A stretch of 64,000 nt of DNA, taken from an uncultured bacterium (GTDB lineage Bacteria; Babelota; Babeliae; Babelales; Vermiphilaceae). Location: the NCBI GenBank assembly GCA_963701085.1, contig OY969561.1, positions 128,001 to 192,000 of the forward strand, read 5' to 3'. The position numbers and the translations under genes are program-made. The notes beneath the pieces are model-generated. The model had not been told where the DNA came from, made no database searches, and saw only the letters and a program-made list of their open reading frames with translations. Below are positions 12,706 through 34,888 of the stretch, in pieces. The first letter of the stretch is position 1; each line of letters begins with the position of its first letter.

Positions 12706-12773
12706 CGCGCTCATTCTGAACTTGTTGAAGAATTAAAGCGCGCTTAACCCTTCAACAAGTTCAGGGTGAGCGC
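12706..12773. repeat. Palindromic repeat type A (both arms)
   Basis: CGCGCTCATTCTGAACTTGTTGAAG...CCCTTCAACAAGTTCAGGGTGAGCGC. Confidence 0.9.
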
Positions 12774-15876: not shown

Positions 15877-18216
15877 TTACAGTCGTTGTACAAATTGTGC
15901 AACGATTTTTTTTACACCAATTTTAAATTTAATCTCCAAATGTATGTCGCCCGATGCCTTTTCTTCAATATCTTGAATTGTGCCGATACCATATTTTGCA
16001 TGCTTTACTGGCTGATTTTTTTTCCACACTGATGTGCTTTGTGTTTTTATTTCTGGTATAGCAGCATGTTGTTTTTTTGCACCCTTCGATACACCCCTAC
16101 CGGGGCACTCAGGGCGAGCGGTTTTAGAGAATTTGTTTGTTGATATATCATTAGAAAAAGAGGGCCTGCCCGCCGAAGCCTCGGCGAAGGAGGGAATATA
16201 GATATCAGAGGTTTTTTGAAGTTTTTCACCGAACCAGTCCGCACAAAATTGATGCACTTGTGCGACGCTCCAGTATGAGCAATCTTCCAGTGGTATCAGA
16301 TGTGGCGGTATTTCATGTAAAAAGCGTGAAGGTAATTGATCAATCATTTGTCCGTATGAATAACGGTGTTTTGTGTAAGAAATAAGCAGATGTTCTTTGG
16401 CACGTGTTATTCCTACATAAAACAGTCTTCGTTCTTCTTCAAGTGCATCATTAGAATTAAGGGAGCGTGTTGTTGGGATGATGCCTTCTTCAACTCCTGG
16501 TAAAATCACTAAATCAAATTCTAAACCTTTTGCGGCATGGAGAGTCATAAGAGAAACCGCATGTGTATCTCTGTTTTGTTTGCTCATTTTGTCTTGCATG
16601 AGTGCAACTTCATCAAGAAAAGCGGTAATGGTTGTGATGTTATTTGTCTCGAAGTGTTTTACCGCGTCTAATAGTTCTTTAATGTTGTCTAAGCGCGCCT
16701 GTGCTTCTTGTGGTTCATCATTGTTTTTTATGTAGCTAAGATAGCTTGCACGCACAATAATTTCTTCAAGAGCTTTACTTGGTAGCGTTGTTGGTTCAAG
16801 GCCTTTGAGGATTCCAGCAAAGCTAATGAGAGTTTCTGTTTTTGCTCTGCCCAGGCTACCGTCTGCCATACATTGTTTAATAATATCGCGCCATGTTGCA
16901 AATGGTTCATTGGCCCATCGTGTGTAAAAGTCACTTTCGAATTTATCGCCCAGTCCGCGCGTAGGAACATTAATGATTCGGAAAAAAGAGGTTCTATCAA
17001 AGGGGTTGGCGATAATTTTAAGATACGCGAGTAAGTCTTTAATCTCTTTGCGTTCATAAAATTGAATACCACCAATAATGCGATAAGGAATGGAATCTTT
17101 GAGTAGTGCTTCTTCCAGTGCGCGTGATTGTGTATGTGTGCGGTATAATATGCCAACGTTATTGAGACCATATTTGGACTTTGCAACCAACAATAATTGT
17201 GCAATTGCGCGTGCTTCTTGATACTCAGTGAGGCAGAGAAGTTTTTGTATTCTGTTATTTCCTTTTTTTTCTGACCACAATGTTTTAGGTGTTCGGCAGC
17301 TGTTGTTTTGTATGGTGTGATTTGCGATGGTCAGTATCGGTTGTACAGAACGATAATTTTGTTCAATCGTGATGATGGTGGTGCCAGGGAAGACTTTTTT
17401 AAAGTTTGCCATGTTGGTCACTGTTGCACCTCGCCACGAATAAATTGACTGATCCTCATCGCCTACAGCGCAGACAGAATCTATTGCGAGAGTATCATCA
17501 ATTAGTGACATTGCTTTAAGGAGTTCATGCTGGACTACGTTGGTGTCTTGGTACTCATCAACCAAGATGTGGCGAACTTTTTCTTGAAACCTATTTTTTA
17601 TAACATTGTTTTTTTGAAATAGGCGCAATGTTTCTAGTAATAGGTCATCAAAATCAAGTGCTTTTGAGGCTTTTTTTTCTGTTTCATACGCATTAAAAAT
17701 ATCGGTAAGCATTGGGTGCGTTAAATGTTCCGTTGCTGGGTGTGATGGATCAACGGTATGATTTTTCATCTGAGAAATCTGATACGCCGTATTTTTTGGC
17801 GTGAACTGTTTTTGCAATCCATTGCGCTGTAAAATTGCCTGAAGCATTTTTTGTTGATCATCGCTATCTAAAATTGAAAAAAATGGATTGATCAGATGTT
17901 CCTGATGTTTTTTCAGTAATTGTACACAATAGGAATGGAATGTACCGATAAACGGAAGATCGGTACGATCGCCTAAAAAAGATGCAATGCGTTCACGCAT
18001 TTCAGTTGCAGCTTTGTTGGTAAAAGTAAGCGCCACGATTGATGATGCAGCAACACCTTTGTTTAACATTAAGTGGGTAATGCGCGCGGTGATAACACGT
18101 GTTTTTCCTGAGCCGGCGCCAGCTACAACAAGGACTGATCCTGCTTCATGGTGTACAGCTTGTTTTTGAGCATTGTTGAGATTGTTTTGTAGAAAATTAT
18201 TAAAAGAGTCGCGCAT
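15877..18216 (-). CDS. pcrA: UvrD/PcrA superfamily 1 DNA helicase with C-terminal Tudor-like domain
   Basis: AGAGSGKT, TFTNKAA, VDEYQD, QNYRS, TLHAAKGLEF, EERRLFYVGITRA; C-terminal V.H.KYG.GT. Confidence 0.95.
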   Translation of the reverse strand: MRDSFNNFLQNNLNNAQKQAVHHEAGSVLVVAGAGSGKTRVITARITHLMLNKGVAASSIVALTFTNKAATEMRERIASFLGDRTDLPFIGTFHSYCVQLLKKHQEHLINPFFSILDSDDQQKMLQAILQRNGLQKQFTPKNTAYQISQMKNHTVDPSHPATEHLTHPMLTDIFNAYETEKKASKALDFDDLLLETLRLFQKNNVIKNRFQEKVRHILVDEYQDTNVVQHELLKAMSLIDDTLAIDSVCAVGDEDQSIYSWRGATVTNMANFKKVFPGTTIITIEQNYRSVQPILTIANHTIQNNSCRTPKTLWSEKKGNNRIQKLLCLTEYQEARAIAQLLLVAKSKYGLNNVGILYRTHTQSRALEEALLKDSIPYRIIGGIQFYERKEIKDLLAYLKIIANPFDRTSFFRIINVPTRGLGDKFESDFYTRWANEPFATWRDIIKQCMADGSLGRAKTETLISFAGILKGLEPTTLPSKALEEIIVRASYLSYIKNNDEPQEAQARLDNIKELLDAVKHFETNNITTITAFLDEVALMQDKMSKQNRDTHAVSLMTLHAAKGLEFDLVILPGVEEGIIPTTRSLNSNDALEEERRLFYVGITRAKEHLLISYTKHRYSYGQMIDQLPSRFLHEIPPHLIPLEDCSYWSVAQVHQFCADWFGEKLQKTSDIYIPSFAEASAGRPSFSNDISTNKFSKTARPECPGRGVSKGAKKQHAAIPEIKTQSTSVWKKNQPVKHAKYGIGTIQDIEEKASGDIHLEIKFKIGVKKIVAQFVQRL
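16082..16121. repeat. Palindromic repeat type B inside pcrA (encodes ARPECPGRGVSKG)
   Basis: CCCTTCGATAC-ACCCCTACCGGGGC-ACTCAGGGCGAGCGG; near-identical to the intergenic copy at 29814. Confidence 0.9.
16165..16194. repeat. Palindromic repeat type C inside pcrA (encodes PSFAEASAGR)
   Basis: CCTGCCCGCCGAAGCCTCGGCGAAGGAGGG, 30 nt. Confidence 0.9.
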
Positions 18217-18268
18217 TATTTCTGCCTTGCTGCTTGTTTTACATAGTATGAATTATTTTTATCTTATT

Positions 18269-18344
18269 GCGCTCGTCCTGAACTTGTTGAAGGATGTCTT
18301 CGAGCGCTCGAGGAAAACCCTTCAACAGGTTCAGGGCGAGCGCG
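18269..18344. repeat. Palindromic repeat type A (complete)
   Basis: GCGCTCGTCCTGAACTTGTTGAAGG-core with CGAGCGCTCG-CCCTTCAACAGGTTCAGGGCGAGCGC. Confidence 0.95.
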
Positions 18345-18385
18345 GGAAAGTATATAGAGAATAAGTGCAATGTTTTAAGTTTATA

Positions 18386-18919: not shown

Positions 18920-19084
18920 GATTCTCCTTAATTAATCACGTAACCTTTTTTCTGTGTTAGTCGTACAAAAAATTAAAAATAAAGTAAAGCGGAGAGCGAT
19001 CTATAAATTTTTATATTGATATTTTTGGTATATCGATATAGAGTATGGCGGTGAAATATCAATTCTTAAAAAAAAGGTTTTCTC

Positions 19085-19567
19085 ATGAATACATTTCGTA
19101 CCGTTTCTCGTGTTTTAGTTGTGTCAGCAGTCGCTTTTGTTGGTAATGCAACAGCTGCTTGTCCTCTTTTTGAAAGTAAATTATGTGGTTTGGTTGGACA
19201 GAATAAAGCAACTATTGCGAGTGCTTTTACTGCAGATAAGATGTTTGATAAAAATGACCATTTTAAAAAAGCATTTATGGGAACAGTAGGATATGCAGCA
19301 GATCATCCCAAGTCTGATATAAATTTTGCGGAACGTCTTGCTGTTGATTACATAATTCGTAGAGCGAGTGATGCAATTGGGTTGGATGGATTACGCAATG
19401 CAGCATTAAAACAATGTGATGTGTTACCAGAAGGTATGATAAGGGATACCGTTAATTCAGCGGTACAAGGGGCTGCAGAATTGGTTACACATTCAGAAAT
19501 GCTTACACTTTTGTCGATGGAGTATGTAATACTACCTTTTTTTGCTGCTAAAAAGACCGGCAACTAA
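19085..19567 (+). CDS. Secreted protein, tandem paralog 1 of 4
   Basis: Signal MNTFRTVSRVLVV...ATA; CDxLP...VTHxE motif. Confidence 0.75.
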   Translation: MNTFRTVSRVLVVSAVAFVGNATAACPLFESKLCGLVGQNKATIASAFTADKMFDKNDHFKKAFMGTVGYAADHPKSDINFAERLAVDYIIRRASDAIGLDGLRNAALKQCDVLPEGMIRDTVNSAVQGAAELVTHSEMLTLLSMEYVILPFFAAKKTGN

Positions 19568-19587
19568 TTTTATAGTGATGTGATGTA

Positions 19588-19617
19588 AAGAGAGGTTGTA
19601 AAAAGCCTCTCTTTTTT
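19588..19617 (+). terminator. Intrinsic terminator
   Basis: AAAGAGAGGTT...AGCCTCTCTTTTTT. Confidence 0.7.
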
Positions 19618-19646
19618 TGATCTATTTTATAAAAAAGGATTTTTTA

Positions 19647-20174
19647 ATGAATACATTTTGTACAGTTTTGCGTGTTTCAGTTGTATTAGTAGTTGCATGC
19701 GTAAGCAATGTAAATGGTGACAATGGATCAAGTAAGAAGTTCAGTCAAACGTTGAATCAGGGATTTAAATTTGCTGTTACAACAACACATGATAGTAAGT
19801 TTATGATTGCGGGTACTTTCCTTGCAGACCATGCAGAAAATAGTATTCTCGGAAAGGCAGCTGTAGAAACCGCTGGTTATGCGCTCGATTCAAGCAAGTG
19901 TAATTTATCTGATGTTGACTTTGAAAACGTTGGCAAACATTTTATCATAAATTATGGCATTCGCAGAGTTGGTAATGAGTTGAATAGCAGAGGTTACACG
20001 CTTGACCCCATCGTCAACGCATGTGATCAGTTGCCAGCCGGTGTCAGCGCTGTTGTTAATCCTGTGGTAAAACCGCTTATACAAACGGTTACTCATCCTG
20101 AAGCGCTTACCCTTGCCGCTTTATATACATTGAATAATTTTGTTATTCCTTATCTTGAGAGTGGCAAAGAATAA
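19647..20174 (+). CDS. Secreted protein, tandem paralog 2 of 4
   Basis: MNTFCTVLRV...; KAAVETAGYA, NYGIRR, CDQLP, VTHPE. Confidence 0.75.
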   Translation: MNTFCTVLRVSVVLVVACVSNVNGDNGSSKKFSQTLNQGFKFAVTTTHDSKFMIAGTFLADHAENSILGKAAVETAGYALDSSKCNLSDVDFENVGKHFIINYGIRRVGNELNSRGYTLDPIVNACDQLPAGVSAVVNPVVKPLIQTVTHPEALTLAALYTLNNFVIPYLESGKE

Positions 20175-20255
20175 TGGAGCCTTTAAAGACTCGCAAATTT
20201 TCTGTTTTATGGTATTTTGTTTATAGGGTATAACCATTATAAACAAAGGTTTTTT

Positions 20256-20800
20256 ATGAATTTCTTAGGGATAATGTATCGAGTTTTAGTCGTTTTGGCG
20301 GTGGTGGTTGTTGGTAATACAAGAGCGAGTGAAAGGTTTAATAAAGCTAGTGATTATGATTTTTTCAAAGTCGACCAGGTAAACTTTTGAATGATAATAG
20401 ATGCACTTTAATGGGCAGTGTTTTTGTAAATAAGATGATTAATAAAGATGATCTTCTTACAAAGGCAGCTGTAGAAACAACTTTTTATGCATTAAATAAT
20501 GCATCTTTGGAAATGGGTCAGTGGATCTTGTGGATATTGATCTTAAAGATGCCGCAGAACATTTTCTATTGAATGTTGCTATTCGTAAGGCTGGTCAAGA
20601 GTTTGGGAAAAAGAGTAATCACGCTTGATGCTGCGGCAAAAAAATGTGATGGGTTGCCAGTGCCGGCAGGCGTTAAGTATTATCTGGATCCTGTAGTAAG
20701 AGAAGTCGCAGAGCAAACTACAGAGCCTGAGATGCTCATGTTTATTACTTGGAAGCTAATGCCAATGGTTGTTAGTATGCTAGCTTCAAAAAAATCGTAA
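20256..20800 (+). pseudogene. Tandem paralog 3 of 4, broken by several frameshifts (or sequencing errors)
   Basis: Leader MNFLGIMYRVLVVLAV at 20256; KAAVETTFYA and CDGLP...TTEPE lie in different frames. Confidence 0.7.
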
Positions 20801-20861
20801 CCGCTCAAATCAATTTTGGTACGTCATCATTATAATATAAGTGTTATTAACAAAGGTTTTT

Positions 20862-21425
20862 ATGAGTTTTTTAGGGACAATGTATCGAGTTTTAGTCGTT
20901 TTGGCGGTAGTGTTTGTGAGTAATACAAGAGCAGTAGAGCTGCGCAATTGCGCCAAACCAGTGTTTATGGGTGTAGGGTCTGTTCTGATTAATGAGAAGA
21001 AAGCTACTGAGTTATTTGGTGAAGAATATATTTCTGCTCGTAAGCAGGTTATTATCGGTAAGGCTGTTGCAGGAGCATTGGCTAATACAAGTAGTGATTC
21101 TTTGGCTACATTTCGTATTATTATTAAAGGTGAAGATGGCCTTGAAATTGAAAATTGGTTTGCTAAAGAAACTAGAGATAGAGTTACCGTAGTAGAAAAC
21201 TCTGCAATTGTAGGATATGTTGCTGTTAATGGTGCCTTACGATTTGGAGGCGATTATTTTTCTTTTGATGAAAAATTTATTGATAAAAAATGCGATGAGT
21301 ATTTGCCAGAGAATGTAGCATGGGTTGCCAAACCAGTAGCGACTTTTATTGTTGATCTTGCGTATGATTATGTCACTGTTCAATTGGTAAAAGGTTTTAT
21401 AGGTGGTAGTAATAAGGCAGATTAA
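20862..21425 (+). CDS. Secreted protein, tandem paralog 4 of 4
   Basis: Leader nearly identical to that at 20256; KKCDEYLPE...KPV motif. Confidence 0.7.
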   Translation: MSFLGTMYRVLVVLAVVFVSNTRAVELRNCAKPVFMGVGSVLINEKKATELFGEEYISARKQVIIGKAVAGALANTSSDSLATFRIIIKGEDGLEIENWFAKETRDRVTVVENSAIVGYVAVNGALRFGGDYFSFDEKFIDKKCDEYLPENVAWVAKPVATFIVDLAYDYVTVQLVKGFIGGSNKAD

Positions 21426-21485: not shown

Positions 21486-22964
21486 TTATTGTTTGCTAAC
21501 AAGTTCTTGTAGTGCAATGCGCACATTTTCCATAACACCATCATAATCGAATGGTTTTTGTTGTTTAAAAATGCGTAATCCTGGATACCAGTATGAATCA
21601 GTGCGGTGGCAGATCCAGCGCCAATCAGCGGTAGCATACGGATGCAGTAGCCATACTTGTGTACCAAGTCCGCCAGCAAGATGTGTCATTGCGGTATCAA
21701 CCGTGATGACCAAATCAAGATTTTTAATCAGTGCTGCCGTATCCATAAACGGTCCTGATTGTTCATCAAAATTATCAAAAACGTGGAGCTGAAAATCTGA
21801 TGGTAATGTGCTTAGTTGTTCAACGCCATCATATTTTTGCAAATTATAAAAACTAACGCCATCAATTGTGCTCAGGGGTGCAAAGTTTTGTAGTGGAACT
21901 CCGCGGCGAGCAATAGGCAACTTTGATGGAATGTCATTATGGAGATCTGCTTGCCAACAGATGCCAACTTTAAAATTGGTGTCAGTGGCAAGTTGTTGTT
22001 TCCAATAGGCAACAAGTGCTGGGTCTGCAAAAAGATACGGAATATTGTGTGGTACGGTAGTATCATTATCGCCGAAAATTGCGGGTAAACTCATGAGTGT
22101 TGCATCAGCGTTATATTCTGGTAGCGCTGCGCCGCATGGGATCAGTTGGTCAATATAGTTGCAGCGAGAAAGCAGTGGTATGAGTGGTTTTTGACATGCA
22201 ACAATAACATCCGCACCCATATTTTTTAAACATTCTGCATAGCGTACAAAATTGAGTGTGTCACCAAGGCCACCTTCGGGGCGTAACAGAATTTTTTTAT
22301 ATGATACTGCATCGTCATGCAACAGTTGGCGTAATGCATCACCATTTTTCCCGCTTTGTGTAAGATAGCGGCTGTGCTGCTTCCATCCATTTTCAAAATC
22401 TCCCTTGGTAATGTAGGCAAAACCAAGACCAAGTTGTGCTGCTTGATATTCGGGATTTGTTTGAATGATCTGTTGATAGAGTTCAATTGCGGTATCGATA
22501 TCACCTATTGTTTTATAGGTGAATGCTTTGTTATAGCGTGCTGGTAATGCTTGTGGGTTGAGGGTGATGGTAGCATCAAATGCGGCGATCGCTTTTTCTC
22601 CTTGACCAATAGCAAGATAGCAACAACCAAGATTGAATAGTGCTGAGATGTTGTATGGTTCGTTATGTATTATTTCTTCATAGCAAGAAATTGCATCAGC
22701 GAACTGTTCATTTTTTTGATATTCCATTCCTGTTTCAAGGGATGGGATTGCGTGGATGTGGATGTGAATAAGCACAGTGTCGTTATTATTCTCGCGCTCG
22801 CCCTGAACTTGTTGAAGGGTTTCTTTGAGCGCTCGAAGACATCCTTCAAGCCGTCCTTCGCCGAGGCTTCGGAGGCCAGGCGGGTGTTTACTGCTGAGCA
22901 ATGTCGAAGCATCAGGACGAGCGGAGGAGAAAATACAAAAAAGTTTGATATTATTTTTTTTCAT
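21486..22964 (-). CDS. TPR-repeat glycosyltransferase family 9-like protein with repeat-derived N-terminal insert
   Basis: TPR repeats; EGGLGD..FVRY, KVGICWQ, F.DTAA....LDLVITVDT...HLAG.LG, DWRW, WYP..R.F.Q. Confidence 0.85.
   Translation of the reverse strand: MKKNNIKLFCIFSSARPDASTLLSSKHPPGLRSLGEGRLEGCLRALKETLQQVQGERENNNDTVLIHIHIHAIPSLETGMEYQKNEQFADAISCYEEIIHNEPYNISALFNLGCCYLAIGQGEKAIAAFDATITLNPQALPARYNKAFTYKTIGDIDTAIELYQQIIQTNPEYQAAQLGLGFAYITKGDFENGWKQHSRYLTQSGKNGDALRQLLHDDAVSYKKILLRPEGGLGDTLNFVRYAECLKNMGADVIVACQKPLIPLLSRCNYIDQLIPCGAALPEYNADATLMSLPAIFGDNDTTVPHNIPYLFADPALVAYWKQQLATDTNFKVGICWQADLHNDIPSKLPIARRGVPLQNFAPLSTIDGVSFYNLQKYDGVEQLSTLPSDFQLHVFDNFDEQSGPFMDTAALIKNLDLVITVDTAMTHLAGGLGTQVWLLHPYATADWRWICHRTDSYWYPGLRIFKQQKPFDYDGVMENVRIALQELVSKQ
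22793..22924. repeat. Composite repeat: type A with type C (22850-22880) and type D (22886-22911) nested in its right arm, inside a CDS
   Basis: TCCTTCAA|C insert|CGGGT|D insert|TCAGGACGAGCGG; about 132 nt; host ORF stays open. Confidence 0.9.
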
Positions 22965-26743: not shown

Positions 26744-26809
26744 GATTTTTTGCCTTATTTAAAAAAAGTGCTGCGCACTTTTCATCGTATTAAGCTTGTA
26801 TGTGTTTCC

Positions 26810-26954
26810 CGCGCTCGCCCTGACCCTTCGGCAAGCTCAGGAGTAAACACCTGCCTTGAGAACTTGCAGTGCCTGCCGAAGCCTTGGCGAAGGCAGGTTG
26901 AAGGGTTTCTTAGAGCGCTCGAAGAGATCCTTCAACAGGTTCAGGACGAGCGCG
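26810..26954. repeat. Composite repeat: type A with type D (26824-26848) and a type C-containing insert (26854-26897) nested in its left arm
   Basis: CCCTGA|D|ACCTG|insert with C|TTGAAGGG-core-CCTTCAACAGGTTCAGGACGAGCGCG. Confidence 0.9.
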
Positions 26955-26981
26955 AAAAGGCAAGAATGATCGGGTTGTCTA

Positions 26982-33345: not shown

Positions 33346-34800
33346 TTACTCAGCAATTTTGTGGGCGATAAGATGCATTTTTCCTGCTCCAAGGAATAAA
33401 ATAAGGTCATTTTTGGCGGCAGATCGTTCTATTGCCTGTTTTATTTGCGTGAAATCATCTTCAAATGGGACATATTGAATAATAAAGGGGGGGTTGAGGG
33501 CTGTCAGTTCTTGTACAAACCGTTCGCTGGTGATTGTTGGGATGGGATACTCTCCGGCGGAGTAAATATCGGTAAAAATGAGGGTGTCGATAGCGCTTGT
33601 GGCAAAGGTGGTGAGAAAATCATTCCATAATTTTTGGGTACGAGTGTAGCGGTGTGGCTGAAATACCACGATGAGTTTATTATGTGCTCGTTTACGAGCG
33701 ACCTTCAGTGTATATTCAATTTCTTTTGGATGATGACCATAGTCATCAAAGATTTCAGCGCCTTTGTAGGTGCCATGGAATGAAAATCGTCGCTCAACAC
33801 CACCAAAAGTGGCTAAGCTCTTTGCAATTATTTCAAAAGAGATTTCAAGTTCTTGCGCAAGTGCAATTGCTGCTAATGCATTATAAACGTTATGCAAGCC
33901 GGGCATTGGTAGCATGATAGTGCCAAGCGGGGTGAGATTATTTTTTGTGTGTACGGTAAACAGTGAGTGATCAGCGTTGAGAATGATATCCTGTGCATAA
34001 AAATCTGCGTGCCTGTCCGCCCCTTCGACGGAGCTCAGGATAAACTCCGCTTTAGCGAAGGAGGATTCTATGCCGTATGATATTGTTTTAACATGGTCAA
34101 GGGGCATGAGCGAGCGTATGTTTTCGTCATCAATACATACAATTGCTTTGCCATCAACAGGAAGATTGTTAAGGAATTGTTTAAAACATTGTTTGATATC
34201 ATCTAAGTCAGTGTATGTTTCCAGGTGTTCCAAATCAATATTGGTGATGACTGCAAGCGTTGCATGTAGTTGTAAAAAAGAGCGATCACTTTCATCAGCT
34301 TCAGCGACCAAAAAATCACCTTTGCCCATGCGAGCGTTAGATGAAAGATTTTTTAATTGTCCGCCAATGACAACAGTCGGATCCATTTTTGCTTCAATTA
34401 AGATGTGGGAGATGAGAGAGGTTGTTGTTGTTTTTCCATGCGATCCAGCAATTGCTATGCTATATTTTGTGCGCATAAGTTCCGCGAGCATGCATGCGCG
34501 GGAAATTGTTGGAATGCCACGCGCTTGAGCTTGTGCAATTTCCGCCGTTACTGCCGGAATTGTGGTGGCATACATGGGGATGTAGACAAGGGTATCAATG
34601 GTTGCATCATTACACTCAATTGAGTTGTTGCCTTTATATACCGTGCAATCGAGACTTCTCAGCTGCGCAACGGTATCCTGCTCAGTATCAGGATCACATC
34701 CAGAAATGGTGTAACCACTTTGCTTTAAGATGGTGGCTATACCACTCATTCCTATTCCGCCAATACCAACAAAATGAATGTGTGATTTTTTTGTATACAT
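33346..34800 (-). CDS. murC: UDP-N-acetylmuramate--L-alanine ligase with 18-aa repeat-derived insert
   Basis: IHFVGIGGIGMSG, GSHGKTTT, EADESD.SF, DDYGHHP.E, FQPHRYTRT. Confidence 0.95.
   Translation of the reverse strand: MYTKKSHIHFVGIGGIGMSGIATILKQSGYTISGCDPDTEQDTVAQLRSLDCTVYKGNNSIECNDATIDTLVYIPMYATTIPAVTAEIAQAQARGIPTISRACMLAELMRTKYSIAIAGSHGKTTTTSLISHILIEAKMDPTVVIGGQLKNLSSNARMGKGDFLVAEADESDRSFLQLHATLAVITNIDLEHLETYTDLDDIKQCFKQFLNNLPVDGKAIVCIDDENIRSLMPLDHVKTISYGIESSFAKAEFILSSVEGADRHADFYAQDIILNADHSLFTVHTKNNLTPLGTIMLPMPGLHNVYNALAAIALAQELEISFEIIAKSLATFGGVERRFSFHGTYKGAEIFDDYGHHPKEIEYTLKVARKRAHNKLIVVFQPHRYTRTQKLWNDFLTTFATSAIDTLIFTDIYSAGEYPIPTITSERFVQELTALNPPFIIQYVPFEDDFTQIKQAIERSAAKNDLILFLGAGKMHLIAHKIAE
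34012..34065. repeat. Type C repeat with a nested type D repeat, in frame in murC
   Basis: CCTGTCCGCC[CCTTCGACGGAGCTCAGGATAAACTCC]GCTTTAGCGAAGGAGGA = 54 nt = SSFAKAEFILSSVEGADR. Confidence 0.9.
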
Positions 34801-34888
34801 AGAAGTGCTTTGCATCTAAAATATGTTAATCTATTCATTAATTTATATGTTTTTAAAAACACTGCAACGTGAGATGGAGATGCTATTT

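Follow-up and report, generated by a model that had tools for sequence, protein, structure and literature searches.

On the minus strand of the window, by which we mean the whole 64,000-nucleotide stretch of DNA analysed here, positions 33346..34815 hold murC, a 489-aa open reading frame for UDP-N-acetylmuramate--L-alanine ligase whose identity is supported by Pfam, by the PDB, by AlphaFold2 and Foldseek, and by alignment. Judging from the sequence, translation probably starts at the Met at residue 6, which matches the start of its relatives (MYTKK...). The domains Mur_ligase, Mur_ligase_M and Mur_ligase_C all score above their curated Pfam cut-offs (E 2e-17 to 8e-29), in the order PF01225 (residues 12-118), PF08245 (122-320) and PF02875 (342-478), and the best 12 matches of a sequence search against the PDB are all MurC (E 8e-96 to 5e-45), rather than MurD, MurE, MurF or Mpl. 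This is the single MurC of the host genome (G000; one contig, 1,198,634 bp, 92.6% complete), with the next best match at E 7e-11. The genome also encodes MraY, MurG and PBPs, and its four Mur_ligase_M loci comprise MurC and three other Mur ligases; for Chromulinavorax, another member of the phylum, passages of PMC6561590 describe a complete mur pathway. One transpeptidase (PBP) match of the host, at G000:C1:2970-3855 (-), comes in two pieces with an internal TGA, possibly a PBP gene that has been broken or split.

Within murC, positions 34012..34065 (minus strand) hold a 54-nt composite repeat element, recognized by sequence, blastn and alignment, which lies in frame and codes for SSFAKAEFILSSVEGADR, residues 251-268 of MurC. 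The added peptide sits between SYGIE and HADFYAQDI, and the predicted protein reads ..SYGIESSFAK.. and ..AEFILSSVEGADR.. across the insert. The 54-nt string occurs once in the window, with a match in 0 of 100 shuffles, and its GC content, 59%, exceeds that of the remainder of murC (42%) and of the whole genome (37%), a foreign composition. The insert, as it stands in the assembly, is confirmed as real and as more than chance. Three of the six reading frames of the element are open, including the one used in murC; its exact fit to the frame needs no more than a length of 54 nt and a one-in-two chance, and with a unit length that is a multiple of three and an open frame the insert would be translated.

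A sequence-only reading of this stretch had placed the element here, exactly in frame, had described it as a composite of C and D repeats, and had proposed that its removal restores SYGIE-HADFYAQDI. The position, the minus-strand frame and the translation bear this out, as does the internal structure. The two ends are C-type halves, CCTGTCCGCC at 34012..34021, which matches the left end of 30-nt C-only elements when compared with C-family copies and with window 16164-16194, and GCGAAGGAGGA at 34055..34065, assigned by comparison with the C family. They enclose a D-type core, CCTTCGAC-GGAG-CTCAGGATAAACTCCGC, at 34022..34050, which by sequence comparison is a variant of a widespread arm, CCTTCGACARGCTCAGGRYGAGCG. 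An inner 5-bp inverted repeat of the core (CGGAG/CTCCG) pairs 34029-34033 with 34045-34049, and a 6-bp inverted repeat pairs CGAAGG at 34056-34061 with CCTTCG at 34022-34027.

The murC insert is only weakly palindromic. Beyond these stems of 6 and 5 bp its hairpin is not significant against shuffles, the DNA fold of the plus strand having a minimum free energy of -8.7 kcal/mol (z -0.26; 81 of 200 shuffles equally good) and that of the minus strand one of -11.5 kcal/mol (z -1.59; 13 of 200). The description of the insert as the clearest protein-coding palindrome of the window is therefore not supported, and longer, far more palindromic in-frame elements are found in the genes for DprA, TilS, RecD2 and Ddl. 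The insert ends, CCTGTCCGCC and GCGAAGGAGGA, are not complementary, that is, terminal inverted repeats are absent, and inspection of the sequence showed no target-site duplication at murC or at the copies at 750398 and 901515 described below.

Repeat modules of the host genome

Comparison of the genome with itself gave 385 repeated regions, 62 kb in total, of which 153 (20-260 nt, at least 45% GC) make up our set of short elements. The long repeats are dominated by very large genes made up of collagen-like G-x-T triplet and NTA(V/I)G repeats (G000:C1:15426-25250 and 68256-71944). Window 19058-20932 holds three to four tandem paralogues with a near-identical upstream region and a signal-peptide-like start, MNTFRTVSRVLVVSAVAFVGNA....

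Repeat modules were defined by k-mer counts and inspection. They comprise an A-type arm, GCGCTCGYCCTGAACTTGTTGAAGG, with about 90 copies in the genome; a B type, CCTTCGATACA...CACTCAGGGCGAGCGG, with about 40 copies; a central palindrome, GAGCGCTCGAAGA; an F type unrelated to the others; and the 30-nt C type, with a consensus near GTGTCCKCCGAAGCYTTRGCGAAGGAGGA. Exact GCGAAGGAGG seeds of the C type occur 27 times, 16 of them in the C-only 30-nt form by a strict pattern and about 23 by eye. Clear long palindromes are found among the A- and B-type elements, for example at window 12707-12773, with 30-nt arms that are 87% complementary.

The murC insert consists of both ends of a C element around a D-type core that takes the place of the short C centre; compared with the C element, the centre GAA is swapped for 27 nt, which is not a pure insertion. 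Searched with blastn against its own genome, the insert has a 51/54 copy at G000:C1:750398-750451 (E 3e-18), a 44/46 copy at G000:C1:901515-901560 and further partial copies. The layout of C half, D core (ATAAAC) and C half recurs in 7 of the 34 arm matches of the genome, with composite copies in G000:C1 at 162023 (murC), 750418, 901527, 894028, 509288, 581344 and 1151802. Five or six further copies in G000 set other C-like stems around a ...GGATGAGCGG core, and the congener G003 has two composite copies with the same junctions.

These repeat elements habitually nest in one another. The composite at 1151796-1151802 encloses a whole further C element. At window 26805-26970, 22780-22934 and 18251-18361, the arms of A-type palindromes enclose the GAGCGCTCGAAGA palindrome, and the A-type palindrome at 26805-26970 also encloses a D-like arm and a C-type hairpin. 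C-type and composite elements also abut tRNA genes (G000:C1:56109-56387, 100349-100692, 608019-608087 and 326223-326300), and several of these copies stop within a few bases of the tRNA end.

Absence from relatives

MurC was found in 39 of the 40 related genomes searched. An alignment of 29 loci, 28 of them usable (including the host row, L001, and leaving out L017, a wrong ORF), lacks the insert segment in all 27 usable relatives' MurC rows. A second alignment joined the host sequence to its 118 best database matches; none of these 118 carries insert residues, and the span that counts 32 residues in the host counts 15 in 115 of them and 16 in the other three. The closest relative (P0002), with a MurC of 467 aa that is 94% identical, reads GIAYEADFYA at this site, without the insert, and the solved MurC sequences 6cau and 2f00 have a gap here.

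The gap that the sequence-only reading had expected in relatives is thus present, although not at the size of 18 aa it had given: the net gain of the host is 17 aa (51 nt). Relatives read SYGIE-HE-ADFYA, with two residues between GIE and ADF, so that excision of 54 nt would leave the MurC loop one residue short. A net 51 rather than 54 nt means either that there was no clean cut-and-paste into the relatives' sequence or that the ancestral loop differed by one codon; the MAFFT alignment of the DNA places the murC gap arbitrarily, and the insertion point is approximate.

Unrelated inserts of 10-74 aa are found in two neighbouring loops of 5 of the other 118 MurC sequences, and four of these five show the ARPE.../...FDTF signatures of B-type elements. 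With three different loops occupied in different species, the small β-sheet of the Mur ligase central domain can be seen as tolerant of insertion. Two related MurC sequences, P0020 and P0022, carry an insert of 24 aa just upstream of the host insertion site. It lies between copies of a repeat, (I/G)KTISY...IKTISY, that resemble an 18-nt target duplication left by another type of element.

Origin of the insert

We consider it highly probable that the murC insert goes back to one insertion of a ready-made 54-nt repeat, after the split from the relative with the 94%-identical MurC, and that it is translated, tolerated selfish DNA. On this model a dispersed, GC-rich and modular family, in which a C-type stem encloses a D-type core, would have supplied a pre-formed unit that entered murC once, later than that split. 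The unit would have lengthened the turn between two β-strands of the ATP-binding central domain by 17 residues, leaving the fold and the conserved residues untouched. It would since have persisted as tolerated selfish DNA, by analogy with the Rickettsia palindromic elements (RPEs) in Rickettsia genes, with selection retaining it solely because neither its length nor its frame harms the enzyme.

The sequence-only reading had instead proposed two successive insertions, both tolerated, with a 30-nt C element entering murC and a 24-nt D element later entering the C element. Nesting is real in this genome (a C element within the composite at G000:C1:1151796; window 26805-26970), C-only 30-nt elements are commoner than the composite, and if D cores enter C loops site-specifically, identical junctions could arise repeatedly. 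We nevertheless regard this history as unlikely at murC, because the roughly seven same-junction composites in G000 and the two in G003 indicate that the composite exists as a unit, indeed as a repeat family in itself, and because the replacement of the C centre GAA by 27 nt is not what a pure insertion into C would leave. The C-only state at the murC site, which that reading had anticipated as a 10-aa intermediate, is seen in 0 of 118 relatives. This absence, together with the recurrence of the composite, makes a single insertion the simpler reading.

Structural context and integrity of the enzyme

The AlphaFold2 model of MurC, computed from the 119-sequence alignment, has a pLDDT of 92.5 and a pTM of 0.92. 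Its best structural matches in Foldseek are 1p31, 1p3d and 2f00 (TMt 0.89-0.93), with the H. influenzae MurC 1p31_B at E 1e-50, TMt 0.93 and rmsd 1.9. The host protein thus shares the three-domain Mur ligase fold of canonical MurC (H. influenzae 1P3D, E. coli 2F00; TMt 0.89-0.93) and differs from it in being longer by 17 residues in one hairpin of the central domain. Inside the model, pLDDT falls below 50 only at residues 252-264, between strands 243-248 and 272-279, and the insert is accordingly predicted as a low-confidence loop joining two central-domain strands, consistent with the central-domain position that had been proposed for it. The low pLDDT is expected, because no other alignment row covers this segment, and is therefore not proof of a disordered surface loop. 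We take the flanking strands to be part of the small antiparallel sheet that borders the central domain of Mur ligases.

All 84 columns that are invariant across the 119 MurC sequences are kept in the murC product, among them G124, H126-T131, E172, D174-D177, H197, D357-Y359 and H361-P363, in agreement with the earlier view that the catalytic motifs are intact; we take the P-loop GxHGKTTT and the EADESD and DDYGHHP regions to be the conserved motifs of MurC. A possible reading is that the insertion has inactivated MurC, as a gene heading for loss, or that the insert has acquired a role of its own, for example as a new surface for interactions. In favour of this, Dependentiae depend on their hosts and carry reduced genomes, one PBP locus of G000 contains an internal TGA, and the insertions of relatives recur in loops of the same small sheet, which could mean tolerance or use. 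Both variants are nonetheless improbable, since the reading frame is unbroken, no conserved column is lost and the genome retains the rest of the pathway, and since the peptide is the translation of a repeat that also lies outside genes and in other frames, which implies no specific function. We infer an active MurC, a harmless loop exposed at the surface and a single event of insertion; short of experiment, a tolerated loop insertion in an essential enzyme is well supported.

In-frame elements in other genes

We counted an element as in frame when the frame is open for at least 60 codons before it and at least 30 codons after it, which applies to 29 of the 153 short elements. Seven of these were dropped: four lie in surface genes with collagen-like or tandem repeats, two overlap tRNA genes, and one falls in a frame of 149 codons. 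This leaves 22 elements in 21 long open frames. Fourteen of the 21 frames have Pfam matches above the curated cut-off, and the other seven may not be genes. The supported hosts are MurC, CysS, UvrD/PcrA, leucyl aminopeptidase, the FtsK N-terminus, DprA (with two elements), DnaX, TilS, the MutL N-terminus, iPGM, TruB, RecD2, peptidase M3 and Ddl. In eight of them (MurC, CysS, UvrD, DprA, RecD2, peptidase M3, Ddl and iPGM) domain matches lie on both sides of the element; the FtsK, MutL and iPGM frames stop soon after it and may be truncated. Within the window, a UvrD/PcrA-type helicase frame identified by Pfam (window 15880..18252, genome 143880-146252, minus strand) carries a B-type element in frame, ..ARPECPGRGVSKG.., between UvrD_C and tudor (window 16071-16125, genome 144071-144125).

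These inserts, too, are absent from most congeners. The 21-aa insert of peptidase M3 is absent in 9 of 9 congeners and the DprA insert of about 40 aa in 7 of 9; in the other two, the same loop holds different peptides that also derive from repeats (..HPELVE.., ..PFVLSL..SKD..). For CysS, 8 of 9 congeners lack the insert, and the ninth, G002, has a different insert at the same spot. Across the congeners G007, G003 and G002, the same DprA and CysS loops thus hold different repeat peptides, and such loops are either insertion hot spots or the sites of old inserts that are decaying differently. The MurC insert belongs to a pattern that runs through housekeeping genes across the genome.

This pattern bears on whether the repeat was misplaced into murC during assembly. 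A search of public runs matched 24 DNA runs, with no RNA run listed and the best run sharing 0.56 of words; the resulting contigs include 100%-identical murC fragments on either side of the insert and bridge neither junction, and those that cover 34011-34064 have other flanks, such as those of the 894020 copy, or come from other organisms. An artefact is still very improbable, given that the murC frame continues on both sides of the insert, that the murC copy is unlike all other copies in the genome (51/54 at best) and so is not a collapsed duplicate, that the genome is a single 1.2-Mb contig, and that similar in-frame elements lie in many genes and at other sites in independently assembled relatives. 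Removal of the insert before the mature enzyme forms, by RNA excision or protein splicing that would leave MurC unaltered, is scarcely credible: nothing beyond the short inverted repeats of the element favours it, an element of 54 nt falls far below the size of a group I or II intron or of an intein, Rfam at gathering score gives 0 matches in the whole window, the hairpin is no better than shuffles, and that the frame used is among the only three open ones fits selection on translation.

Relation to known repeat systems

The closest known analogue of the host elements is the RPEs. In R. conorii, according to passages of PMC10969869, 44 RPE insertions lie in genes, about half of them as in-frame fusions compatible with protein structure, and a part of PMC1166351 counts 728 RPEs in R. 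felis, 85 of them within ORFs. Both kinds are small dispersed repeats in the reduced genome of an intracellular bacterium, placed between genes and in frame within unrelated housekeeping genes, the hallmark of RPEs, and both encode extra peptide segments that fit the fold, with no transposase known. They differ in host phylum, which here is Babeliales/Dependentiae by the names on homologues, and in size, RPEs being about 100-150 bp, whereas our C type and composite measure 30-54 nt and our A and B types about 100-150 nt. Unlike RPEs, the host elements are also modules nested in each other, one arm of which is exactly shared with many phyla. Because the host phylum is different and the likeness described here is one of behaviour, we do not class the element as an RPE.

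Small intragenic repeats and MITEs (ERIC, BOX, Coxiella QMITEs) are described in passages of PMC10969869 as non-autonomous and able to make in-frame fusions, and the host elements are likewise non-autonomous small repeats that give in-frame fusions. We rejected a MITE for the murC insert on the lack of terminal inverted repeats and of a target-site duplication, with no parent IS or transposase found among the five transposase families searched. REPs and REPINs, which are mobilized by RAYT, share with the host elements their short GC-rich hairpin repeats, frequent inverted pairing and high copy number; REPs are extragenic by definition, however, whereas the host elements enter genes. This assignment was also rejected, in the absence of a RAYT partner: PF01797 (Y1/RAYT) has 0 matches in the 92.6%-complete, single-contig host genome, against matches in 6 of 14 control genomes. 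Matches to PF01548 (IS110), PF07282 (TnpB zinc-ribbon), PF01609 (DDE_Tnp_1) and PF00665 (rve) likewise number 0 in G000, and the control genomes responded.

Searches of the main texts of open-access papers returned nothing relevant for the repeat DNA and peptide strings and, among the papers listed, none linking Dependentiae or Babeliales to palindromic, MITE, REP or selfish-DNA elements. The TM6 comparative-genomics and Chromulinavorax papers contain 0 occurrences of 'palindrom', 'mobile element' and 'transposase'.

Distribution across genomes and phyla

A pattern for the C core is present in 13 of 41 related genomes, including 8 of 10 congeners. The pattern for the D/A arm is present in 20 of 41, namely in 9 of 10 congeners, 7 of 14 genomes from other genera of the family and 3 of 16 from other families; reversed-pattern controls gave 0 throughout in both scans. 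In a scan of prokaryote genomes, with a single genome for each species, the 24-nt arm CCTTCGACARGCTCAGGRYGAGCG, which in the host genome lies for example at G000:C1:56124, 279995 and 494247, was found exactly in at least 129 stretches. Among the matches listed are Chloroflexota/Dehalococcoidia, Sphingomonadales (including isolates), Burkholderiales, Acidobacteriota, Elusimicrobia, Thermodesulfobacteriota, Moraxellaceae and Dependentiae, and an inverted partner is often found near the arm in those records. By a rough estimate, the chance expectation for this arm in about 6e11 bases is well below 1. Our search of the main texts of open-access papers found no description of this sharing across phyla.

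A more far-reaching reading, which we put forward tentatively and to which we would give a minority chance, is that the murC insert is one visible part of a modular superfamily of short GC-rich repeats, undescribed so far and spread across phyla, whose members nest in each other, colonize coding sequence in reduced Babeliales genomes and repeatedly remodel loops of essential enzymes without a recognisable transposase. If true, it would call for horizontal spread or for recognition by machinery common to many bacteria. The sharing of the arm across phyla may be a more interesting lead than the MurC insert, and if it reflects a common mobilizing or recognizing machinery, it would be the broader finding.

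Discussion

The murC insert adds a new instance, from a new phylum, to a kind of event already known, the in-frame insertion of a selfish repeat into a protein gene. It offers a clean and recent case, with an empty allele in a 94%-identical relative and a host gene that encodes an essential, single-copy enzyme. It also carries a warning for annotation, in that peptides such as SSFAKA.., ..ARPELVEG.. and ..PFDTF.. in the proteins of this clade are translated repeats and not domains. Together with the elements in other housekeeping genes, it brings an unrelated obligate intracellular lineage, the Dependentiae/Babeliales, into the range of in-frame selfish DNA within protein genes, which has been described mainly in Rickettsia.
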